Below the pieces are notes generated by a model. The model ran no database searches, was not told the origin of the DNA, and saw only the letters and a list, made by a program, of their open reading frames with translations. Shown piece after piece: positions 30,492 to 64,000 of a stretch of DNA of 64,000 nucleotides (positions within the stretch are counted from its first letter, which is position 1; every line of letters starts with the position of its first letter). A program made the translations under genes and the position numbers. The stretch comes from Eledone cirrhosa (Eukaryota). The stretch spans positions 15,810,001 to 15,874,000 of the forward strand of contig OZ024740.1 in the NCBI GenBank assembly GCA_964016885.1, in the 5' to 3' direction.

Positions 30492-30676
30492 CACACATAT
30501 ATATATATACATATATATATACATATATATATATATGAAAAGTGTAAGTTTCTACACAAAACGAAGGTTATAGAGAAAATTGAGGTTGGTAATGGCACAT
30601 GGAATATATAAGAGACAGAGTACTTTTTTGTGAAAAAACATATAATTTTATAATGTAAGGAAAGAATAAAGGGTAT

Positions 30677-30727
30677 AAAAAATGACCGGTTTCGATGGGT
30701 CTGCAAAAGCCATCTTTTCAAATGTTG
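30677..30727 (-). ncRNA. Minimal HHR, U3:A8 core variant (family D)
   Basis: Minus: AACAT-TTGAAAA-GATGG..CCATC-GAAAC CG GTC^ATTTT; stem I weak; homolog at 50783-50832. Confidence 0.5.
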
Positions 30728-31251
30728 ATTAATATTAAGAAAAATTAATAATAAGAAGAGTTAAAATTTGAGATTTGAAAATTCAAGTATAAAATTCAGT
30801 GTGGGATTTCATAGTAGTTTTCATCTTGGTAGCAGCAAGTTGACTGCTGTGTGTCCCTTTCTGGTAGTGAATGAGGAATTAAGGTCAGATTTAGCAATGG
30901 CCAGATGGCCAGGTGCTGGTCAGTGAGGGGGTGGAAGCAATATACATACATACATATATCTCTATGTGGTCGGTAGGAGAGGAGAGAGTGCTAGAAAGGG
31001 ATTTAGTGCACTTACACCTATATATACACATACCCTCATCCACACACACATACATATACATACACATATATATATATATATACACACACACACATACATA
31101 CACACACACATACATACATACACACACACACATATACACATACACATATATACACACACACACACATATATATACATACACATACATCCAGATACACACA
31201 TACATACACACACACACACATACATACACATATATACATATATATGTACAT

Positions 31252-31307
<56 letters not shown>

Positions 31308-31865
31308 ATACACACACATATATATACATACACACATACAAACACACATACACACATATATACACACATACACACACACACACACACATATATATATACA
31401 TACACATACATCCAGATACACACATACATACACACACACACATATATACATACACATACATACATCCACATGCACCAACATACACACACACACATAGAGA
31501 AATGGCCTCCAAATATATATATATACATACATACACATATATTTTTTCCATAATATAAGAAGTTAGAACAGTGAAATTAAAATACAAGTCATTCTGATCA
31601 CATTGAGTTCTTCATGTAGATTGGGCCCCGCAACCGACAGTGGTGAATTCTGTGTGCGCATATATATATAGATATATGTGTGTGCACGTGCAGGGTTTAA
31701 CATGGATGTGTTGGTCACACAAAGGCATGGTCTGTCAATGAATAAACCTGATTCTACAGAATTGGTCTCTGGTCTTTAATAGTAGTGATAATTATATACA
31801 TGCACACATACAAACACATATATCTGTCACTCCGTGCGTATGTGTGTTTATATTTTATGACAATT

Positions 31866-31977
31866 CTATTGGGGTGATAACCCGTTTAGTTTTGGTTTAA
31901 ATTTGTTAAGGAATAGATTTTCTTTGTTTATTCTTTGTTGCTGTGTGAACGAATCTGAGCACTTGTAGAAGGGGAAG

Positions 31978-31982
<5 letters not shown>
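31866..31982 (-). pseudogene. C-terminal tip of a PLE GIY-YIG endonuclease, truncated at a (TA)n tract
   Basis: KIFPFYKCSDSFTQQQRINKENLFLNKFKPKLNGLSPQ* resembles the R..(K)E..F...F.P.LN end of PLE GIY-YIG domains. Confidence 0.55.
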
Positions 31983-32033
<51 letters not shown>

Positions 32034-32339: not shown

Positions 32340-33180
32340 TTTTAGCCATAAGGTATTTGAAAGTTGCAAAGTTCTTGTGCATGCAGTTCGGGCAATGTTC
32401 AGAGAGTTTGTTCAGTAGCGGGCCCTAGGCGAATAAAATTTCATAGCTCTCTCAGATACAAAGGTCGCAGCCCTTGTGTCCTCCGTTGTAAGAGCGCGCT
32501 TTCTGGAGTATTTTCCATTTAAGCGTAAGGGGGGTGGAGTTCCTTTTGAAGTCCCAAACATAGCAGGCGAGTGTTGTCTGGTTTGATTTGTCCGGTCTTC
32601 TGAAGGAGTGGGTATGGGCACCCCAACGGGTCTTAAAGTTATTGGAAGTCATGCCGATGTAAGTATTTTTGTTGCTGCAATCATCGGTGCCTGAGATGAC
32701 ATGGCATTTGTATACGATATCATTTGTCAAGCATTTGTTTTCAAGTGGGCAGGCTTCCTTATTTAGGCAATTACACAAGGCCACAGTCCGGGGATTGGGT
32801 TCGGAGGTGGTTGGCTTATTTAATTTTTTAGAATTGTGATTGGCTATATTCCTAGCTAGGTTGGGTGTGGTGGAGTAGGAGAGTCTTATTGTGTTCTTAT
32901 TAAAGATGGTGTAGTACTTATGTTGTATGGGGAAGTGTGTTTTCAGCAAAGTGAAGAAAATCCTAGCTATCAGTGTAGAGACCTCTCTATTGAAGGGAGG
33001 GTTGTACCAGCTAATCTGCCTATGCCAATTCCTCCTCTGCAATCTTGCGGTGGTTTCTAGGTAGGTAATCTTTTCTTTAAATCCGCTGCGGGCGATGGCG
33101 TCATTGTAGTAGGAGGCAGAGGCGTTGAAAATATCTTCGTTGACAGAGAGGCCAGAGATTCTAATGGAGACACTTTTTAC
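32340..33180 (-). pseudogene. 5'-truncated Penelope-like element: RT thumb plus GIY-YIG endonuclease
   Basis: ORF 32452-33267: WYNPPFN, IFNKNTIRLSYS, CNC..CPL..CL, IVYKC..TYIGMT..FKTRW..H..SF, CDLCI; ends at a stop right after CDLCI, earlier than the 44-45 kb homolog. Confidence 0.9.
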
Positions 33181-33278
33181 TAAGTAGAACTTTAAAGAAT
33201 TAGCTTTTAAAGAATTTCCCTTTTCTTTCAATCCTTCAACCATGACCGACCCCAAATTAAATACCACTTCTACTTATA

Positions 33279-35604: not shown

Positions 35605-38600
35605 CTACAGGCTTATAAACAGAGAAGGCCCAATCACTCGGGTCATTTTCGCTTCATTCACCCACCTTTCAGTAAATTTACTGAGGTGCAGTGCCTCTCT
35701 CTCCACTCTGATTCTCCTTCTAAAGTGATACTTATAGAAGGGAATCAATTATTGTCCGGGGAGAAAGGCATCTGTCCTCAGTCCTCTCAATCTCGTCTAC
35801 CATATAATTTCTTTCACCATAGCCACTGTACAGTGGAAAACCGCCTCTCTTTGGTTTTTGAAAGAGGCTGGCGGTGTGATCCTTACTATGGACTCGGCAG
35901 TCAACTGGATGTGTCCCATACGCGACAGCAGGTGTTCTGCATAGATCCACAGGTCGGTTACGCCCGGGCAGTGTACAATTGCGTGCAGGACTGTTTCAAT
36001 GTCCTGCGCGCATCTTGGACACGTCCTCTTGGAAGGATCCTTGCCGGGGCGTCCGTGCCTGTAGATCTTGTCAAGAACCGGTAGAGCTCCTCGGTAGCAC
36101 TGCTAGGCCAGGGACCTCTGGAATTTGTCCATAGGTCCTGGGCGGAAAGTCCTACCAAACAGTCTGGTGAGCTCATCGTCTTCGACGCCCAGAGTCTCTC
36201 CGAGCACGTCGTCGCCCTTGTAACGTACAATCCCTCTATAGAATGTCGAAGTGGAGTCTCCACTGATTGCTGTGCCCGCTTGCCAGAGGACTGTGAGCGC
36301 CTGAGCGCATTCAATGTGGCAGGCGCCCATCGTTTTCGGTTTTTCTTGACCCAGGACTGCAGCTCCGTCAGCGAGACGAGCTGTGGGAAAGCCTGTCTCA
36401 CAAACGGTGCCCACGCACGTTGGGGGTCGGTGAGGAATACCTGGAGATGCCACACCCTCAGCGCATGTTTGCGCATCATCATCCACAGCATTCCCAGCCC
36501 TCCGTTGGAAGGGTGCTGACAGCAGACGGATCTCACCAGCGGAGCCTGCTTCTTCCACAGAAACTGGAAGAGCATGCAAGGTACGACAGTCAAGCGGTAG
36601 TAGATGACGGACGCTATGAAAGTGTTCGCCACCTCCGCTCGACCTTTCAAGGACAGTTTGCACTCTGCCCACTTCCGGGTGAGCGCAAACACCTTGGACG
36701 TGACCTCGTTCCAGTTTTTCTCCACCTGGAGGTCTGGACCGAACCAGACCTCGAGCAATTTCACCGGTCCATCCGTCCAGCGTCCAACGACGCTGTCGGA
36801 CATCATCGGTTTGCCTCTCCACGTACCGAGTTGCAAACCGACAGACTTGTCCGGGTTTAGTTTTGCTCCCGTCAGCGTTTCGTATTCTTTCAGTAAGTTG
36901 CCGATCACCCCGATTTCCGAGGTGCTCGACACCATTACCAAAGCGGCGTCGGCATAAGCCGACGCCGCTTTGCGCAGTCCCGGTTCTAGAGGGATGCCCT
37001 GCAACAGCTCCAATTTCCGCAGTAGTGGCTCTAGAGTCAATACATACAGAATGGAGGAGAGAGGCACCCCTGTCGAATGGAAAGTGTGATTGCGAACGGC
37101 TCCGATAGGTAGCCGTTCACCTTGACCCTCGAGCAGATGCTGGTGTGCATCGCCTCGATCCATCCTCTGAACACGGGACCGAAACCGGCCGCCTTGAGGA
37201 CCGCTCCCAAGTATCGATGGTCGACCCTATCGAATGCCTTAGACTGATCCAAATTGATCAGAGCCCCACCGAAGCCGGGTTTACTACCCACCCTCTCTAT
37301 GATGTATCGCATGAGGTGGATGTTGTCGTGTATGGACCTGGTCGGGATTGCACACGTTTGCGCTTTCCCTACCAGGTTCTCGACGACAAGCGCCAACCTC
37401 GTCGCTAGCACCTTGGCCAAAATCTTTAACTCTGTGTTGAGCAGAGTTATGGGCCTGAAGTTGTTAATTTCGTCCCCCTTGTTCTCGTCTTTCCTGGTCA
37501 GCGTTACTACGCCCTTGCCTGCAGAACTGGGAATTCTCCCGTTCTGCTGCCAATTTCAGTAGACGGCTTCGAGGACGCCAGAGAACAAGTCCGGCATGCC
37601 TATGTTAAACTCATAGGTTAGACCATCTAGACCTGGTGACTTGCGTTTCCTGCACCGACCCAGCGCGTCCCGTACCTCAGTGTCCGTGATCGGTCTTTCG
37701 CAGAACTCGGCGTCCGTGTTCGAGAGACGCGGCAGGCCGTCGAAGTATGAACTAAAGTCCATTGCCCCGTTCGGCTCACCGTCGTTCTGCTCAAACAGTC
37801 GCGCAAAGTGCTGCTGAAAGGCCGCGCACCTTTGCTTGGGGTCAAGTAGCACGCGCCCGTTTTGGTCTTTCAAAGACCGAATCGTGGACTTGTTGCCACT
37901 TTTTGCCTCCGCCACTCAGGCCCAGCTGACAGATTTCGCTCCTTCGTTTTCTAGAGCACGTGTTTTGCTTCTGACCACGCAGCCTTCGTGTTTCACGTCG
38001 AAGAACTGGTCTAGTGCCGTTCTCGACGCTAACACTCTAGCCGCGTTGCCACTTCTAAGTGCCTCCTCTACCTTGGCTACTAGTTCTCTTTCTATTTTGT
38101 TTTTCTCTAAGGCTAACTCTCTGCTAAACTCTATCGATTCTACTCTAATTGCTTTCTTGAGAGAGTACCACCATCTATTGTTGACGATAGCTCCCGTTAA
38201 CTGTTGCTTCACTAATCTACTTATCCGTTCACTGTAAGCTTTACGTGCCGGCAACGACACGTACAGCTTCCAGTATCCGGGTCCCTGTCTATGTATTTTA
38301 TCACGGTTGACTCAGTAGACGACTAACTTGTGATCTGAGTAGGCAACCATGTGCATTCGTGGACAGCTTAACATCTCCTTGTCCCTTTTTCTAATGAAGA
38401 ACCTATCTAAATACGATCTAGATGTCCCACTGCGGTTTACCCACGTCCACTGTGGTGCAGTCAGGAAATCCAGTCGATACCGATCGGCCAGTTGGAATTG
38501 GCCAATTAAAGTTTTGAGGCTGTTGCACCCCTCTCTACTGGGACATGCTCCCACATAGTCCCATCGTGCATCTAGGATACCATTCCAGTCCCCCATTCCC

Positions 38601-38980
38601 AGAAAAGACTCTAGACGCTTAAAGAAGTCTGGCCGTGATTGCGATTGCCCGATCGGGGCATAAACGGCCACCAGTCTGAAGGCTCTACCTCCGATACTGT
38701 TCACGTCTAGGACTACCAGTCTACCTTCCGGGTCCAATTGTACTTGCTGTATTTCGACGTCCAGGTTCTTCCGAAACATGACAGCCACTCTACCTCCACC
38801 TCCTGGCTTACAGAGAGATGCGTAGATCTCAAAGTCGTCGAAGATGGGGGTTAGATGCTGCTGCCTGTTGTGGATCCTGGACTCGGTGATGGTTATCACA
38901 TCCATATCGTGTGACCTAAGGTCGTTTAAAAGTTGGCTCTGTTTCCAGGGCATCCCGCTTTCAACTCGTAAACTAGCCAT
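35605..38980 (-). pseudogene. LINE ORF2 (AP endonuclease, reverse transcriptase, C-terminal Zn domain), broken by stops and frameshifts
   Basis: Fragments: ITITESR, GDWNGIL, SYLDRFF, YSDH (APE); KSPGLDGLTYEF, LDQSKAFDRVDH, IRQGCLSP, YADA (RT, YADD mutated). Confidence 0.92.
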
Positions 38981-39022
38981 ATTGGTGAAGAAAAGTTGGA
39001 GAAAAAGGACGAAAAGGTGCAC

Positions 39023-40922
39023 TTACCTTTTCGTTTCCTGGAGATCGGGTTGTTCAATCTCCATTCGGGTGCTGGATGGGGTGTTGGGTGAGGTGGGGAA
39101 ACATTTTAATAGGACGTGGTTGATGGGTTTCTGGCAGGGGTTGCCCACGTCCTGTGAAAATTTATTTTTCAGGTCACTATAGGTCTCCATAGAAACCCTT
39201 ATAAGTTTAAGGTGTGGAGACGATTCTGCTTTGACGAAAGTTTTGCCCTCCGTCTCCAGCTTGGGGTTTTGGGAGATGACCTCAATCAAACTCCTGTTGT
39301 TTGTGTTGATGTATGTGTATTGTTGTTTGTGTTTTTGTTGTGTTGTTTTAGTTTGTTGTTCGTCCGGGAGTTTTCTTTTTATGGTGGGTGCTTGTGTTTG
39401 GGGTGGTGTTGGTTTTGTTGGTAGGGGATATTTGATTGTGGTGTTGTTTGTATTGTGTTTGTGTCTGTGGTTGTGTGTTGGTGTTGGTGATTGGAGTTTT
39501 GGGGGTTTTGTGGTGTCTCTTTTTTGTTTTTAAAATTTCCGAGGCTCTCCCTCTTCTTCACTTAAAGAAGGAGAAGCAGCCTCATCTGTCGGTGAATAAT
39601 CATCGTCAGGAGTGTGGGGTAAGGTATGTTGCGTGGTGGTGGTGTTTCGGTGTGTGTGTTTGTGGTAGTGTTTGCTGGAGTGGGATGGGTGGGGCTGTGT
39701 TCTTCATGGGTGTTGTCTGTGTTTTTTTCTGTTGTTGTTGGTCGAGTGGCTGTTTGTTTTGATGTGTTTGCTCGTTTCGTCTGTTGTTGTACTTGTGCTG
39801 GTGGTTGTTTTGGTGTTGGTGTTGGTGTTGGTAATAGTGTTTTTTTAATGATGTTGTTGTGGTGTGTTTGTGAAGGACAGGAGGCTTTTAGGTGTGCTGT
39901 GCTACCACAGCGAAAGCAATGAAATTTACGCCCTTCTACCGAAATGTTTACTTTGTTGTTGTCGTCGATGACGACTCTTTCGGGTATTTTAAAGATTCTC
40001 TCCGGCCTCATTTACATCAGAATCTCCAAATCAGTACCCGCCCACCTTTGTCTAATAGATTTTCATATCGAAAGAATCATATCAGTCTCTGGTTCTACGA
40101 AGCCAGCCAAGATCCACCAGATGTTAATGTTTGGTGGTATATTTTTTATTCTTATTTTTTGTGTCCTTTTTCCTATGTACGTAGGGAAGGTGAATGCTTT
40201 TGACACCATTGGTGTCACAGAATGTTTTTGGGCGAGTGCCTCACTTTTAAACAGTACGGAAACACTTCCGTACTGTTTTCCTCGCTGGAGAAAGTCAATA
40301 TTTGCTAGAATTTCCTTCAAGGTAGCTTCTATATATCCTTGACTAACAAATATCGGCTTTCTCGTTGTATTGGAGACAGTACTGGAGGTCACTGTCCTTC
40401 GAACTGTGTCTTCTTTTATTTCGAGGGGTGAGTTAATTATAAATCCACCCTTGTCTTCGAAAGTTACAAATTTTCTCCCTTGCTGGAGCATATCTCTTGC
40501 ATTGGAGATGTCAAGATTTATAAAATCTTGTTTTTTGTTCACTGTTTCAGCGAAAGACATTTTTTGTGTGTGGTGTTGCTGTTGTTGTTGTTGTTGTTGT
40601 TGTTGTTAGCCTCGGTGTTGGAAATTACAATTTCTTGACGACGTGAAATTTTATGTGTAGATGTATCTATGGAGTTGTTGTTGTAGTCTTTTTCATGTGT
40701 ATGTATATTAATAGGTTTAATTCCTGTATGCTGTGTGTTATTTTTCTCCGCTTCGACGGTAGAAATTTTAAAATCTTCAAGTGGTAATATTCTTTTCTCT
40801 TTGTTGACAGTCGTATCTATGGCGACGTCCATAGTAGCAGAAGCAGATATAACGTTAATATCTGCCTCTTTACTTCTCTTCTCTCTGTCGACGTTCTCTA
40901 GCGTTATTTTCGAGTTATTCAT
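39023..40922 (-). pseudogene. LINE ORF1 (gag-like, CCHC zinc knuckle), frameshifted
   Basis: Fragments 40539-40922, 40063-40560, 39562-40011 (CFRCGSTAHLKASC), 39023-39289; homologous to ORF1 of copy 2. Confidence 0.85.
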
Positions 40923-43859: not shown

Positions 43860-44149
43860 ATAAAAAAACATGGGTAAATACTTGGAAAGTCTCATCAAGA
43901 AAAGCAAAAAAAAAAAAAATATAGACAAATGAATTAGAATATGAAATATATAAAAATCTTTCAAGAAATATAGTTAGGTGTGTGTATATGTATGTATATA
44001 CGCTCACAGATGTGCATATATGTGTATGCACATATGTATACGTATAGTGAAAAAGTGTGCGTAAATATATAATTTAGGGCAAATGTATCTGTGTATCTGT
44101 AATCTACAGACAGAATAGATACATCATAAGAATATGAAGGCCTACACAC

Positions 44150-45799
44150 ACGTACATTCAGATTAATTGCACCATCTAAATCTGACCTGGGCAAACTTAG
44201 CAAAAATATTCTAAACAGGGTAATACAACAAATTAAAAACTTACCAAATTTATCTTACTTAAAATTATGGAAAGGGACAAGTGAGGTTATCGATTGGTTT
44301 AAAGAAATTAAATATAACTATGATAATAAGTTTATTCAGCTGGATATTGCTAACTACTATTCATCTATCACTCCTAATCTACTGAATAAGGCACTAAATT
44401 ACGCATTTAAACATACAGACCTAACTAGAAATGAAATGCACATTATATTATCGGCAAGGAAAACATTGATAGAATTTAATAACCAACTCTGGACTAGGGC
44501 AGATAGAAATAATAATTTCGACATAACTATGGGATCATCAGACTCAGCTCAGGTAACGGACCTTGTGGGCCTATTTATAATTAATTCGCTACATAGAAAA
44601 ATACCAGGTGTAACCGGAGGCTTATATCGTGATGACATGCTTTTACTTATACAAAATAATAGCTGTGAACTAAATAGAAAAAGAAAACAAATTATACAAT
44701 TTTTTAATTACCTTAACCTAAAAGTAGAAATAGAGAATAACCATAAAATAGTCAATTTTCTTGACGTAACACTAAATCTCAACACATGTCTTCATTATCC
44801 ATTTCATAAACTAAATGAGAACTTGAATTATGTTAATTTTAACTCTAATCACCCCAGATCTGTTAAAAATACTATAGTGAACTCTGTTCAAGAAAGAATT
44901 TCAAGAATTTCATCTAATAAAAATATATTTGATGAAAAAGCGCAGTACTACAACGAAGCGTTAGGTAGAGCTGTATATAGAAATGAAATGAAATACATTG
45001 ATAATAATAATAATAGCAAACTAACCAAAATAATAACAATTTTAATTATGGTAACAACTTTAACAACTATAATAGAAAACATTACAATAATTCCAAAAGT
45101 CGAAAAAGAAGTAGAACTAGAAATATATTATGGTTTGCTCCCCCTTTCTCACTAAATATTAAAACCCCTATTGCTAAACTATTCTTTAAAGCTCTTGACA
45201 AACGCTTCCCTAGAACACGTAAATATTACTCAATTTTTAATAGACACACTATAAAATTAACTTACTCGTCCACCAAAAATTTAGCACAAAATATTAATAG
45301 AATTAATAATAAAAATGTAAAACCTAACCAAAATACCAATAATAACCCAAGCAATATTCAATTGAATAACTGTAACTGTAGAAATAAATCTAACTGTCCG
45401 TTAAATAACAACTGCTTAGCTAAAAATGTAGTGTACAATTGTAATGTTAAAACTAATTTAAATTCGTTTAACTATGTTGGTTCTACTTCTACAGAATTTA
45501 AATTTCGCTTCAATAATCATAAAAATTCTTTCACAGATCCAAATAAAAAATCTTCAACTTCGCTATCTAGCCTACTATGGGACCTAAAACGAGATAATGT
45601 TAAATATTCGATGACTTGGAATATTATTTCACAAGCTACTCCTTTTAATTCCTCTTCAGAAAATTGTGATCTTTGTATTAAAGAAATATTCTTTATATTA
45701 AAGTCCAAAAATTCCCTTAATTTAAGGAACAATTTATTCAGTTGCTCCAGACATAGATTGAGCTCAACGTTTAAATATAAATATAAATTTAAAATGTAG
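44150..45799 (+). pseudogene. Penelope-like element ORF (RT plus GIY-YIG), 5'-truncated, frameshift near 45030
   Basis: FDITMGSSDSAQVTDLVG, GGLYRDD, VNFLDVTL, YVNFNSNHP (PLE RT); CNC..CPL..CL, VVYNC..YVGST..FKFRFNNH..SF, CDLCIKE (GIY-YIG). Confidence 0.93.
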
Positions 45800-48571: not shown

Positions 48572-49113
48572 ACCAGTATTTTTCCCCCTGGTAAAATGGT
48601 GTACATTATTCGATTTTTTCAGTAAAATCGGTTCTCTTAATAGAACATCAAAAATCTTAACAATAAAAGGTGTGAAATGATATTCACTATATATATATAT
48701 ACACATACATATATTCACTATATATATATATACATACATATATACACATATATACACACATATATATATACATACATATATACACATATATACACACATA
48801 TATATACATACACATATATTGTTTTGTGTTGCACCATAGAGCATGTGTGTTTACGTATGTCATTGTGTTTATATGTGGGTAGAGATGTGTGCTGATGTAG
48901 GTATGTATGTTGACGTGTGTATGTTGTGGGTTCGTCTTAGGGAGAAGTGTTTAGACGGGGTCCGTATTTGTTAATGAAGTAAGATTCCTTGCTGATGCGC
49001 TGGGTGTGGGTGGCATTATCTTTAAATTTGTAGAGGGGAAAGATAATACCACAATTTCAAACTGCTAGCCTCGAGTGATACGTTGATGTAAATAATGATC
49101 TTACAATCACATG

Positions 49114-49169
49114 TTATATGCCTTGAAAAGTTCCACCATGTGGGCGGACGAAACGGCTGTCGGCAATAA
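49114..49169 (+). ncRNA. Type I hammerhead ribozyme, U3:A8 compensatory variant (family G)
   Basis: TGCC-TTGAAAA-GTTCCACCATGTGGGCGGAC-GAAAC GGCT GTC^GGCA; stem I TGCC/GGCA. Confidence 0.75.
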
Positions 49170-49318
49170 ACTTGTTATAACGTCATAATAGTTCCTTTGT
49201 TCTTTATCACTAATATTTCTGCTCTGCGTATACGCATAGAGCTTAACTAGCTACCGTCACATATTTGGTAGGTCAGACGTGATCATCGCGATTCACATAC
49301 GACCTACCATACATCTTA

Positions 49319-49400
<82 letters not shown>

Positions 49401-50577: not shown

Positions 50578-50634
<57 letters not shown>

Positions 50635-50782
50635 GAAGTTGGAAATAGCACGGAAAATATATTTACGGGTCTGGTTTGAGGGGGGGGGATTCCTTTCTTT
50701 GATTCGTCAAAGTGACATTATTGAAAAAATGAGAGGGACAATTCTTTTTAAAAAAAGTTTTATAAAGTATATAAAGTATATA

Positions 50783-50832
50783 AAATATTACCGGTTTCGA
50801 TGTATTATTAAAATTCATCTTATCAAATGTTG
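50783..50832 (-). ncRNA. Minimal HHR, U3:A8 variant (family D)
   Basis: Minus: AACAT-TTGATAA-GATG..CATC-GAAAC CG GTA^ATATT, within repeat 50633-51020 homologous to 30540-30900. Confidence 0.5.
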
Positions 50833-51264
50833 AGTATTGAAATAAAAAATTGAAAAGAATTAATAAAGAATTAATAAAAATTAAAGATTTAAAATTAAAA
50901 TCAAATGTTGGGGTAAGTTTTCTTCCATCTTTCTTGCTCAAAATTTTGCTGGAGAATGAGTTCTTGTTAATAGAGAGGTGGTAGTGAAGATAGCAGCAGC
51001 TATGTTTCTTCACAGAACAAAGTTGTTTTTTTTTGGGGGGGGGGGGGCAAAGGAAACCTCCTGTAAATATATGTGTGTATATCTGATTGTGTTAATTGAC
51101 TGGTCAAAAGTTCAAAAGGGAATTGTAAACTAGAGGTAAATTCTATGGCAGTAGCAGAAATTTAAAGAGAAATTTTATTATTGGAATATGGTTTTAAGGA
51201 GTGTGTGTATATGTATATATATAGTGTGTTAGGGTGTATATATAACAATACACACACGAGTGTG

Positions 51265-51347
<83 letters not shown>

Positions 51348-51967
51348 CAGCCTCTCTGTCACATATATATTAGCGGGCTGGGTCTAAAAATATAGGTTGC
51401 CAGGAGACAAGGGGACCACTCACAACTACAATACTATCATTTAATTTTTATATCGAATAAATAAAATTTACAAAAAAATAAAATTGTAAAGTGAGAATAC
51501 GGATTATAGAATATATTAAGAATCTCTTACCTTCTCCAATAAAACATCTTGTGAAATATACACATCCACAAAATAACAGTAATGCACTTTGATCTTTCAT
51601 ACTCAATATATATATCTATAACTTGATCTATTTTCTCTTCGGTTACTTTACATACTTTACATACATGCCATTGTCCTGTGTTCCCCATTCTATCGGTATG
51701 TTTACTTCGTTTTTTTCCTTTTTTCTTCTTCCCTTTTTCTTTCTTCCTCTCTCTTCACTATCAGTTCTTTCCCTCGTGGCCTTTTGATAGATAAAAGGCC
51801 ATGGGCGTGCTACGGATCGATGTTCTGTTTTAAGCGCCGAAACATCTAAGATCCGTAGTAAACAGCTGACGAAGGGAAACTTTTTCTTCTCTTGTTTCTG
51901 TCCTGATTTCCTTCTAACACTTCGTCGTTTTCAGTAACCACACAGCCTCGCCTCCTAACCCATATTT

Positions 51968-54537: not shown

Positions 54538-56407
54538 ATGGAAGCCATTACCACAGGTAACGATGAGACGCCCACTAAACACACTGAAGGAGAGCGGGTA
54601 GCTGAGGCAACAAGCCTCCCTACTGAAAGAATAATGATTATTAGAAACATTGAAAAAATGGAGCCTAACCCTAATGAAAAAAATTGACTCGGAGAAATTG
54701 CCAACATTAATGGATGCCGTTTAGACTTTTCACGGTGCCACGCCCACCAGCAAAGGTGAAAGAGAGGTGGAAGCTGTGACTACAAGTCTCTCGGATACTG
54801 AAAATATAAGTGAACATTTTGAAAAAATGGAGTCTAACCCCAACGGGGAAAAAAATGTGAACGCATACACCAACATAAATAACACAAACACAACAAAAAG
54901 TGAAAATTGTAACAACAAAAAACAAGAAAACCACATTTCGACAAATGTAAACAAAGAGGGGGCGAACAAAATGACGTTCGCGCAAAACATAAAAAGAAAC
55001 TATTGTGTACGAACCTGTTGACATTTCGAACATGGCTCAGCAAATGGAAAATGCACGGAAGTATATAACTTTGGAGGAGAATGGTCTATTTTCTTTAAAT
55101 TCTCCCCCAGAGCTAAAAAATGAAAATAGCTTAAAAACTATTATTTATAGGACAATATCAAACAAAACCCGTAAGCCAGTACAACTCACACAGACAGAGA
55201 TTGAACTGGCTTTAAAAGATCATCTGAAAAACATTGTATTCATTCGGAAGGATAGACTCTACGTTAGTCTATCCATTCGAATGAAAGATAAATTGACGGC
55301 CGAAAAACATTCCCTGGCCCCAATTGTGTCCCCCTTATTTACCTTCTTCCCCACTTATTTGGGAAGAAAAACACAAAGATTGACCATACACAGTATCGAT
55401 CCAGATATTGATTTCTGGGCTGTACTGTGTGGCCTCCTCGACTTGAAAGAGGATGCAGTAATTTCGGTAGGTAAGTCTTCCAGCAACGTGTTCGGTGGAA
55501 CTAGCCTGCAAGTTCTGGTGCAAATGCAGCCAGAACGAATTGCTAGGATCCCCGACCGCATATTGCTGGATGGGCTTGCCTACTTACACATCACAGTAGA
55601 GGGTAGACGACCCGCTTGTTACCTCTGTGGTGGCAGGGGTCACCTGAGGGCTGCCTGTTCCCAAGCAAACAAAAAAACACCGATTTTGCCCACACCAACA
55701 ACTACAACTCTACCAATACAACCTCCACCACCACCACAAAAACAAGTAACATCACAAGTTAAAACACAACTGAACCCCCCCCCCCCCACACACACACAGA
55801 AAACAAATACAATAACACCCACACCACAAACACGAGCAGAAAATGAACTCCTCCCCTCGAATACAGAAGACGACCCCCTTTCGTCGTCAGACGAGGGGGG
55901 GGGGGCACTTTCATAAAGTTAGAAGAAAAAAAAGAAAACACACCACAGGAACACAAATACAAACAACCCCTCCCCAAGACATAACACAGAAATCAACACA
56001 CAAAAACACACAACAGCAAACAAAAAATATCACCCAAAAAGAAAAATATGCTTATACTTACATAAATACAATAAACAAAAAACTGTTAAACGTTATTTAT
56101 AATAACAACTTAATAAAAACCGAAGGTTCGAACTTCGCACAAGCAACGGGGCTTCCCCATCTAAAAATGATAAAATCCCCAATGGGCATTTACAAAACGT
56201 TAAAAGACACTTTTAAAGAGGACGTGGGACCCCCTGCGTCAGACCCATTAACCGTGTCCTCCTAAAAAAAATCCCCCCCCCCAGACACCCACACAACTTC
56301 AAACACCCTAACCTCACCACACACTGATGGCCCTACACTTCCACAAACCACCACCACACCCAACAACCAATCCCCCACCTCCATGGAAATTGTGCGCAGA
56401 GAGGTAA
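54538..56407 (+). pseudogene. LINE ORF1 (CCHC zinc knuckle), frameshifted
   Basis: Fragments 54767-55021, 55005-55916 (CYLCGGRGHLRAAC), 55843-56265; start position approximate. Confidence 0.85.
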
Positions 56408-56431
56408 GTGCCTTTTCTCTTTACCACCAAC

Positions 56432-59400
56432 ATGGCTGTGTTGAGAATAGGTTGTCTAAATGCGCGTGGCTTGGGCTCAACTTGGAAGCAAGCAATGCTT
56501 CTAAATGACCTCAGGTCACGATGTATAAATGTGATGGTTATTTGCGAGGCCCGGATCAGCAGCGTGCGGCAGCTGGCCCCCACCTTTGATGACTTTGAGA
56601 TGCACGCATCTCTCTGTCAGCCCGGAGGTGGGGGTGGGGTTGTCGTTCTGCTGCAAAAACATCTGGCTCTCACTACACAGACGGTACACTTGGACCCGGA
56701 GGGTCGACTAGTGGATCTGGACCTTGGCAGTGGTGAAGGCGGAGCTTTTAGGCTGGTCGCCGTCTAGGGCCCTTTTGGGTCAACGCGGCCGGACTTCTTC
56801 CATCGTCTGGATACTTTTCTAGGGACGTTCCGCTCCTTGCTTTTAGTGGGGGACTGGAATGGTATCCTAGATGCACGTTGGGACTATATAGGGGCATGTC
56901 CTGATAGAGGGGGTTGTAACAGCCTGAAGGGGTTAATCGGCCGATTCGACCTGGCGGATAGATATCGACTAGATTTTCTGACTGTGCCAATCTGGACTTG
57001 GAGAAACCACAGCGGTCAATCTAGATCGTACCTAGATAGGTTCTTAGTTAGAAATAAGGATAGGGACATTTTAAGTTGTCCAAAAATGCTCATGGTTGGC
57101 TATTCAGACCACAAGTTATTGACCACCATGGTCAACCTTGATAGAACGCATAGACAGGGACCGGTTACTGGAAGCTCAATTTGTCCTTACCGGCAAGTAA
57201 AGCTTACAGGAACCGGATTAGTACATTAGTTAAGGAGCAGTTGACGGGCGCCATCGTCAACAGCAGGTGGTGGGGCTCTCTCAAAAGAGAGATTAGAGTA
57301 GATTCAATAGGAGTTAGTAAGGAGCTAGCCTCAGATAGAAATAGGAAGGAAAGGGAGTTGGTAGATAGTGTAGAAGAGGCAATTAGAAGCGGCGACGTAG
57401 CCAGAGTGCTAGCGTCGAGAACGGCCTTGGGCCAGTTCCTCGACGCGAAACACGAAGGCTGCGTTGTCCGAAGCAAAATACGTGCTCTGGGAAACGAGGG
57501 GACAAAAGCTGTTAGCTGGGCCAACGTGACAGAAGCAGGATGGACGGGTGATCCTTGAGCCTAAGCAGGTGTGCGAGGCCTTTCAAAGGCACTTTGCCCG
57601 ATTGTTCGGAAGGGATGAGGGGCCGGATGGGGAGGTGGACCTCGGTCCATACCTCGACGTCCTGCCACATCTTTCGGACGAGGAGGCGAAGTCTGCGTGA
57701 GGCCGATCTCAGCTGCTGAAATAGGGGACGTGCTGAGCCAATGCGGCAGACGCAAATCTCCGGGGCTCGATGGTCTTCCATACGAACTGTATTTAAGTAT
57801 GCCGGACTTGTTCTTCGATCTCCTCGAAGCGATATACTGAAACTGTGACCAAGGGCGTAGTCTCGCTAGTGAGGAAGGACGAGAACAAGGGGGATGAAAT
57901 AAGTAATTTTAGGCCCATAACACTGCTAAATGCAGAGTTAAAGATTTTGGCCAAGGTGTTAGCAAAGATGGTGGCGCTTGTCGTGGGCAACCTGGTGGGA
58001 GATGCGCAGACATGCGCCATCCCCTCCAGGTCCATTCACGACAACCTCCATCTCATGCGATACATCATATAGAGGGTTGGGAACGAACCCGGCTTTGGTG
58101 GGGCCCTGATCAACTTCGATCAATCTAAGGCGTTCGATAGGGTCGACTATCGTTACCTGGATGCGGTGCTAGTGGCGGCAGGTTTCGGGCCCGTTTTCAG
58201 GGGCTGGATCACTGCCATGCACAGCAGCCGCATCTGCTCTAGGGTCAAGGTGAACGGCTACGTCTCGGAGCCGTTCGAAATCACGCGGTCCATTCGACAG
58301 GGATGCCCTCTCTCCTCCCTTCTGTATGTATTGGCCCTAGAGCCACTGCTGCGGAAGTTGGAGTTGTTACAGGGCAGCCCTTTGGAACCGGGATTGCGGA
58401 AAGCGGTGTCGGCCTACGCCGATGACGTGATAGTAATGGTGTCAACCGCCTCGGAAATCGGAGTGCTCGGCACCTTACTGGAGGAATACGAAACGTTTAC
58501 AGGGGCTAAGCTGAACCGGGACAAGTCAGTCGGTTTGCAACTCGGCGAGTGGAGGGGCAAACCGATGGCCTCCAACGGCGTCGTCGGACGTTGGACGGAG
58601 GGCCCGGTGAAGTTGCTCGGGGTCTGGTTCGGACCAGACCTCTAGGTGGAGAAGAACTGGGGTGAGGTATCGAACAGGGTGTTTGCGCTGACGTGGAAGT
58701 GGGCGGAGTGCAAACTATCCCTGAAAGGTCGGGCGGAGGTGGCGAACGTTTATATAGCGTCCGTCATCTATTACCGCCTGACCGTCGTGCCTTGCCCAAG
58801 GGAAACGCTCACCAAAATGGAGCGCGCACTCTTCAAATTCCTTTGGAATAAGCGGGCTCCTTTGGTGAGGATATCCATCTGCTGTCAGCACCCTTCGAAA
58901 GGAGGGCTGGGGGAGCCGTGGCTGCTGATGCGTAAACATGCATTAAGGCTACGGCACCTCCAGGTATTCCTTACCGGTCAACCGGTGTGGGCCCCGTTTG
59001 TGAGGCAAGCCTTTCCGAGACTCGTCTCGCTCACCGAGCTGCAGTCCTGGGTCAAGCAAAGAACGAGAAAACTGGGCAAACACCGAGTGTGCCCAGACGC
59101 TCACGGCTCTCTGGCAGGTGGACCCGGCTATCGGTGGCGACTCAACCTCGTCATTCTATAGAGGGCTGGTGGTTTGTAGGGGCGACGACGCCCTCGGACA
59201 AGCCCTAGGCATGGAGGAAGACGAACTGGCCAACCTATTCGGGAGGATATTTGGCCCGGGACCTATGGACAACTTCCAGAAGTCCCTGGCCTGGCAGTGC
59301 TACCGAGGGGCGCTGCCCGTTCGAGAAAAGCTCTACAGACACGGGCGCCCGGGTAGGGACCCCTCGAAAAAAATCTGTCCCAGATGCGTGCGCGACGAGG

Positions 59401-59791
59401 AAACCGTTGTAACGCATTGGTACACTGCTCGGGAGTTGCCGATCTGTGGGGCTATGTCGAACGACTGCTGTCACGGGTGGGACCAATCCGGTTGACTACT
59501 GAGTCCATTGTAACGATCAAGCCGCCTTCCCCCTTTATAAATGAAGAAGAGGCGGTCTTCCTCTGTGTAATAGCCATGGTGAAAGAGCTGATATGGTGAA
59601 CACGTTTGAAAGGGCTGAGGTCGGCCACCTTTCTCTCCGGCCAACAACTGGTCCTTTTCTTTAAATACCATTTTAAGAGAAGGATCAGAATGGAGAGAGA
59701 GGTGCTCTACCCCAGCAAGTTTTATGAAAGGTGGGTGAAAGTAGCGAGAATGGCCCGTGTGAATGGGCCTTCTCTCTTTATCAGCCTGTAG
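56432..59791 (+). pseudogene. LINE ORF2 (APE, RT, Zn domain) with multiple stops, frameshifts and deletions
   Basis: MAVLRIGCLNARGL, VICEAR, GDWN, YLDRFL, YSDH; FRPITLLNAELKI, IRQGCPLS, AYADD; CPRC..ETV. Confidence 0.93.
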
Positions 59792-59980
59792 GCGCAAAGG
59801 TGTAAGTGCAAAGGAGCACTCCCTCTCTGTGCTCCTAAGGAAAAGGTTTGCACACTTTTTCGGGGGGGGGGGTAACCCCCAAAACGCCTCCTCTCTATTG
59901 AGGACTGTATTGTTAATTTTATATTTGTTATTTATTTTTTACTCGTTCCTTTATGTAACCCCCTCCCTTGTATTTGTCCC

Positions 59981-63495: not shown

Positions 63496-63641
63496 GTGTA
63501 TATTACTGAAGCGATGGAGACGTCCGACCATCTCTCCTTCACCTTTTGTAACAACATTCTCTCAGCCGATATCTAGATCCCAGTACTTATCTACTGGAAA
63601 TTCCGACTGAAATGGAAGCCAAGTTCCTTTCAATGGACCAT

Positions 63642-64000
63642 CACAGTCAAACTACACTGTCCAGTGACATGGGCTATAAGCAACATGGATGGCCGTCACA
63701 ATCAAACTACACTGTCCAGTGACATGGGCTATAAGCAACATGGATGGCCGTCACAGTCAAACTACACTGTCCAGTGACATGGGCTATAAGCAACATGGAT
63801 GGCCGTCACAATCAAACTACACTGTCCAGTGACATGGGCTATAAGCAACATGGATGGCCGTCACAATCAAACTACACTGTCCAGTGACATGGGCTATAAG
63901 CAACATGGATGGCCGTCACAATCAAACTACACTATCCAGTGACATGGGCTATAAGCAACATGGATGGCCCTCACAGTCAATCTACACTGTCCAGTGACAT
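63642..64000. repeat. 55-bp minisatellite, at least 6.5 copies, continues beyond right edge
   Basis: CACA(G/A)TCAAACTACACTGTCCAGTGACATGGGCTATAAGCAACATGGATGGCCGT at 63642, 63697, 63752, 63807, 63862, 63917, 63972. Confidence 0.97.

Follow-up and report, generated by a model that had tools for sequence, protein, structure and literature searches.

Features of the window

The window (the whole stretch of 64,000 nucleotides that was analysed; contig OZ024740.1, positions 15,810,001-15,874,000, forward strand) is rich in microsatellites and in pieces of retroelements. A 45-bp satellite with 523 copies (90% match) occupies positions 1-23572, and a 55-bp tandem array is found at the window end (63633-64000). 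Two decayed LINEs, which from their motifs we take to be L1/Tx1-like, are located at ~35900-40900(-) and ~55000-59900(+); they contain pieces of ORF1, APE endonuclease, and reverse transcriptase (RT), are 82-84% alike, and have inverted orientation. Broken frames from Hydra-type Penelope-like elements (PLEs) code for RT and endonuclease (44130-45799(+)) and for an endonuclease with a Pfam GIY-YIG match (32452-33273(-)).

Three hammerhead ribozyme motifs carry U at core position 3 and A at core position 8 (U3:A8). These and their host elements, which were delimited by comparison with other copies in the genome, are as follows.

49119..49165, plus strand: hammerhead A, type I; core TTGAAAA at 49123-49129, with U3 at 49123 and A8 at 49128
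49046..49320, plus strand: family A, 5'-truncated Hydra-type PLE, represented by a 275-bp fragment of its 3' terminal repeat (pLTR); 95-98% identical to other copies from 49046 onward
49321..49397, no strand: (TA)n run seen in the sequence, bordering copy A on its 3' side; probably the insertion target
30682..30723, minus strand: hammerhead B1; core TTGAAAA at 30721-30715, with U3 at 30721
30537..31983, minus strand: family B1, 5'-truncated Neptune-type PLE; of the endonuclease, the last 44 codons (31982-31851) remain, together with the 3' region and pLTR
50787..50828, minus strand: hammerhead B2; core TTGATAA at 50826-50820, with U3 at 50826
50633..51366 (5' limit approximate), minus strand: family B2, 3' piece of a Neptune-type PLE from a sister family, with an (AG)n run at its end

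The broken PLE frames at 44130-45799(+) and 32452-33273(-) were considered as hosts of these motifs and were rejected, as they belong to none of A, B1, or B2. No hammerhead could be tied to these two frames.

Structure of the three hammerhead motifs

The cores TTGAAAA at 49123(+) and 30721(-) and TTGATAA at 50826(-), which a preceding sequence-only reading had reported together with the retention of stem II, GAAAC, and GUC/GUA triplets, were confirmed. The order is the same in all three motifs: behind the core come helix II, with G10.1-C11.1 as its closing pair, then GAAAC, a short stretch of helix III that is self-complementary, and the cleavage triplet (GUC in A and B1, GUA in B2). All three thereby show the core YUGANRA, Watson-Crick 3:8 pair, GAAA, and NUH of a type I hammerhead.

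In hammerhead A, helix I consists of TGCC/GGCA (4 bp plus an extension), helix II spans 49130-49149, and GAAAC-GGCT-GTC spans 49150-49161, with the predicted cut at 49161/49162. Hammerhead B1 has GATGG/CCATC as helix II (30714-30694), followed by GAAACCGGTC (30693-30684; predicted cut 30684/30683), and hammerhead B2 has GATG/CATC (50819-50799), followed by GAAACCGGTA (50798-50789; predicted cut 50789/50788). In contrast to hammerhead A, helix I comprises just 2 uninterrupted bp in B1 and B2, and none was formed for these two motifs in a constrained fold. Helix II has 4-5 bp in all three motifs and is weakened in the window's A copy, which differs from typical copies by two private changes (49132 and 49144). 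When a typical family A copy is folded, the structure with the hammerhead helices lies no more than 1.5 kcal/mol above the free minimum, whereas in the A copy of the window helix II is partly lost (-13.1 compared to -18.5 kcal/mol for the free fold). The short self-complementary helix III segments known from dimeric PLE hammerheads are present, with predicted self-duplexes of 8 bp (including two G-U pairs) and 6 bp (-9.7 and -8.3 kcal/mol). Elsewhere among the analysed loci, U3:A8 hammerheads occur with long helices II and III which could fold as monomers (L033 ~8060(+), L110:8282(+), and L095:986(-)).

With positions 3, 7, and 8 left free in the descriptor, a search of the window gave seven hammerhead-like motifs. 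Three are the U3:A8 motifs (49123+, 30721-, 50826-) and four have C3:G8 (28428+, 28286-, 43633+, 47565+), the latter showing an AT-rich palindromic helix III. A stricter descriptor, defined after the motifs had been seen and accepting any letters at positions 3 and 8, returned exactly the three motifs from window positions 23601-64000. In 60 dinucleotide shuffles of that region, there was no U3:A8 match, and matches of any kind averaged 0.017 per shuffle; the view that these are not chance motifs, already taken in the sequence-only reading, is thus upheld. An Rfam scan of the window gave 115 matches at E<=1, none to a hammerhead family; those obtained were microsatellite miRNA artefacts only. 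Because the four C3:G8 motifs were missed as well, the Rfam models do not cover this hammerhead subtype.

Host elements

Judged from the copy comparisons, A, B1, and B2 each reside in the 3' pLTR of a 5'-truncated PLE, with a microsatellite adjoining. A search of the genome (3.0 Gb, 1,796 contigs) yielded 1,228 candidates for family A, of which 40 were scored (96-97% identity). Family A copies have their 3' end fixed at (TA)n and a variable 5' truncation, and an inverted partial copy is often present; what the window contains is a solo pLTR end of 275 bp. A full unit of ~5.4 kb was found in locus L035, where the pLTR repeat lies on both sides of the RT-endonuclease ORF and hammerheads are located at 2060 and 7446; its 3' region is ~2.5 kb. 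In the protein (L035:2832-4931), RT and endonuclease are separated by long inserts of low complexity, a feature shared with the protein of the sister family L113. The family A protein shows RWR (in place of RWK), DKT, CxCX5C, CxxC, and CxH motifs and, at the C terminus, a GIY-YIG-type region, which together with the (TA)n targets suggest that family A belongs to the Hydra clade of PLEs, an assignment by motifs and target, not by a tree with references.

For family B1, 1,273 candidates were found, 40 of which scored at 99-100%. The window copy is 97.7% identical to the end of a 710-aa frame in L097, and (TA)n runs flank it on both sides. In the longer copies, this 710-aa frame includes DKG and a linker of the form CX4CxxC; the GIY-YIG core of the family contains cysteines, and its targets are (TA)n. 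Family B2 gave 2,311 candidates, with the scored copies mostly at 89-93%; the window fragment is 76.5% identical to the 3' end of an ORF-bearing element in L093. Hammerheads B1 and B2 are located ~1.1 and ~0.8 kb downstream of their ORF ends, respectively. Both families appear to be Neptune-type, as judged from motifs (not from a reference tree), namely DKG and a CX2-5CxxC linker before the C-terminal endonuclease, features which are common to Nematis.

The hammerheads of these families are found in the pLTR of an element with RT and GIY-YIG endonuclease. Pfam detected GIY-YIG in one of six PLE frames and in none of the family A frames, and the GIY-YIG assignment of family A is based on motifs and on similarity to the GIY-YIG-positive window frame. 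The sequence-only reading had attributed the motifs to two independent families. Two distant PLE types are indeed involved, as the best match between the A and B1 proteins is 28% over 67 aa (E 2.5e-4), but the motifs at 30721 and 50826 are from sister families (ORFs 73% identical at the amino acid level) and count once. A further family, C (e.g. L090:5616(+)), also appears to be Neptune-type; helix II of its U3:A8 hammerhead has 4 bp, and the motif often occurs as inverted pairs ~100 bp apart.

Abundance of U3:A8 and C3:G8 hammerheads

Pattern matches were counted genome-wide for the classes given here, and variable gaps in the patterns may count one place twice. The family A pattern has 808 exact matches (control 0); among the first 100, T3 occurs in 100 and A8 in 99, while N7 is represented by A (74) or T (26). 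The GAAACCGGT class has 17,922 matches (control 172), about 17,500 of which are U3:A8, and family C accounts for 83 of the first 100. In this class, 191 matches have A8 with a base other than T at position 3 (C3 in 48 of the first 100), and 181 have Y3 with a base other than A at position 8 (control 148; U3:G8 in 53 and C3:G8 in one of the first 100). The GAAACGT class has 2,754 matches (control 167), the first 100 being U3:A8 (90), C3:G8 (4), C3:A8 (3), and U3:G8 (3). By these counts, U3:A8 is common, not rare, in this genome, with about 20,000 copies.

The GAAATATRTATA class has 81,707 matches (control 1,326), which is a very large number for such motifs; the first 100 are C3:G8 (97), U3:G8 (2), and C3:A8 (1), with no U3:A8. 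Tandem C3:G8 hammerheads resembling non-LTR retrozymes were observed in L012 (310-bp spacing) and L090:6723-7206 (483-bp spacing).

Do positions 3 and 8 change together?

Double changes at positions 3 and 8 had been taken in the sequence-only reading as a sign of selection on catalysis, to be examined by covariation among paralogs. Within families, single changes at position 3 or 8 affect ~1% of the copies each and are uncorrelated; double changes in the GAAACCGGT class amount to one (in 100 of the 181 matches with Y3 and non-A8), compared to ~0.5 expected if independent. These copy-level changes look like neutral decay after insertion, as expected. Because copies decay neutrally, a test of covariation has to compare families. 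Covariation among copies was discarded as a test of selection, and the uncorrelated changes, which had been proposed as a refutation, are misleading in that role.

Between families, a joint change was observed. One motif was taken per distinct type from ~0.73 Mb of window and fetched loci, which are enriched by the searches. Among the resulting 31 hand-picked types, 16 have U3:A8, 15 have C3:G8, and none is mismatched; as the types are related and chosen by hand, they do not represent 31 independent events and a Fisher p overstates the case. Mismatched single copies of otherwise paired families (L078; L049/L091) were omitted from this set, as were the L115 family (mutated copies only), three weak matches, and a LINE-end look-alike. 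Position N7 takes all four bases in both the U3:A8 and the C3:G8 group. A candidate U3:G8 family (3 of 100 matches in the GAAACGT class) was discarded, as the single copy inspected lies behind a LINE-like ORF and is devoid of helix I.

In an unrooted tree of 11 Hydra-type rows (9 of them labelled, 5 filling under half of the columns; 6 short or redundant rows were dropped), family A (U3:A8) is sister to L113 (C3:G8) with support 96/98. At least two changes of the 3:8 pair are needed on this tree, in which three of the C3:G8 links come from single copies, and a topology uniting the five U3:A8 rows in a single clade is rejected (p-AU 0.0026; a quick first tree had been seen before these groups were tested). 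The pLTRs of A and L113 align downstream of the ribozyme, so that both core bases differ in homologous motifs.

On these comparisons, the signal of selection on the 3:8 pair sits at the level of families and not of copies, and the interpretation given in the sequence-only reading is supported in part. We lean towards the view that, within one PLE clade, the pair has switched two or more times between C:G and U:A, one of these switches separating sister families whose pLTRs are homologous, and that whole lineages, with ~20,000 copies, have U3:A8 as their fixed state, mostly having G10.1 directly after A9. Among the families that could be linked, no Neptune-type one carries C3:G8, and the 3:8 change may have gone either way; U3:A8 may be ancestral to both PLE types rather than separately gained.

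Interpretation

We consider it probable (roughly 85%) that the three motifs are type I U3:A8 hammerheads in the 3' pLTRs of truncated PLEs, the versions in the parent elements likely cutting the element RNA as dimers. Self-cleavage in the parent elements is a likely prediction by analogy with the proposed dimer processing of element RNA via helix III (PMC4209133, PMC6765202). Two copies, located on one tandem or inverted transcript or meeting in trans, would pair via their self-complementary helix III segments; U3:A8 would preserve the Watson-Crick core pair; and cleavage after C17 or A17 would process the element transcript. Selection would work only on lineages which are still transposing, and the solo copies in the window are therefore likely inert and decaying, so that activity of the window copies themselves is doubtful. 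Among four sequencing runs compared with the ribozyme, those presumed to be RNA showed no coverage of it, and a low-depth contig from another organism has an A-to-T change at N7 along with helix II changes; these data speak neither for nor against expression. Between families, positions 3 and 8 change jointly, and N7 and helix II vary freely.

Alternatively, the motifs, B1 and B2 above all, might be descendants of hammerheads which no longer cut, with U3:A8 merely inherited and multiplied, or the fold might have another role (protein binding, a 3'-end signal). The 2-bp helix I of B1 and B2, absent from the predicted fold, would be in line with this, but the Penelope element of D. virilis has also been described with a 2-bp helix I (PMC4209133). 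Metazoan PLE hammerheads are reported to cleave weakly in vitro, even as dimers, and other functions were left possible by the authors (PMC4209133); Naiad PLEs spread without canonical hammerheads; and the changes among copies are uncorrelated, as noted above. Against this, the whole core and G10.1-C11.1 are retained while the helix II sequences wholly differ between families, N7 alone varying in the core, and positions 3 and 8 both differ between the sister families A and L113. We regard this alternative as unlikely. A chance origin in AT-rich repeat DNA, where TTGAAAA is a common word, is hardly credible even without an Rfam hammerhead match, being refuted by the absence of U3:A8 from the 60 shuffles, the 17,922 genome matches compared to 172 in the control, and the constant pLTR location.

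Relation to known hammerheads

That U3:A8 is a compensatory pair, as assumed in the sequence-only reading, agrees with the literature: several natural U3-A8 hammerheads have been described, and earlier in vitro activity is cited (Perreault et al. 2011, PMC3088659). The pair is the same as in the present families, but in section 8 of that paper it is not presented as a clade-wide state of a retroelement. About 1,300 U3-A8 motifs have been tied to schistosome PLEs, together with a dimer model (Cervera and De la Pena 2014, PMC4209133). The motifs described here resemble those of the Cercyon elements of Schistosoma mansoni in being type I, in pLTRs, with U3-A8, G10.1-C11.1, and a short palindromic helix III, and in occurring mostly solo or as inverted pairs from truncated copies (PMC4209133). 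They differ from Cercyon (~1,300 matches) in number (~20,000), in their presence in both Hydra-type and Neptune-type elements, in mostly having no extra base between A9 and 10.1, and in keeping a helix III segment of 6-8 nt (PMC4209133).

Family A shares with the Hydra clade (Craig et al. 2021, PMC8557442) the RWK-like motif (RWR), DKT, CxCX5C, CxxC, CxH, the GIY-YIG-type region, and (TA)n. Canonical hammerheads are reported for that clade in the passages considered (supplement S2 may differ), in contrast to U3:A8 in family A, and the ~5.4 kb unit compares to 'generally <3 kb' (PMC8557442). B1 resembles PLEs of the Neptune or Nematis type in DKG, the CX2-5CxxC linker, its GIY-YIG core cysteines, and (TA)n (PMC8557442). 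In the literature searched, U3:A8 was not found to be described for Hydra or Neptune elements, although such a description may be contained in file S2 of Craig et al., in figures S2-S5 of Cervera and De la Pena, or in Lunse et al. 2016; the passages considered from a 2026 bioRxiv preprint on retrozymes do not contain the term U3-A8.

U3:A8 and its link to PLEs are thus already in print (2011, 2014), and the present case is an ordinary new example which alters no mechanism. As the sequence-only reading had anticipated, searches requiring CUGANGA miss these motifs. In a genome of this kind, tens of thousands of hammerheads go uncounted in this way; if the interpretation is true, a census based on CUGANGA would overlook about one fifth of the motifs counted in this analysis. 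The comparison adds family-level evidence for selection on the catalytic core pair of PLE hammerheads, and families A and L113 would, if the interpretation is true, offer a matched pair from nature for studying the context in which U3:A8 works.
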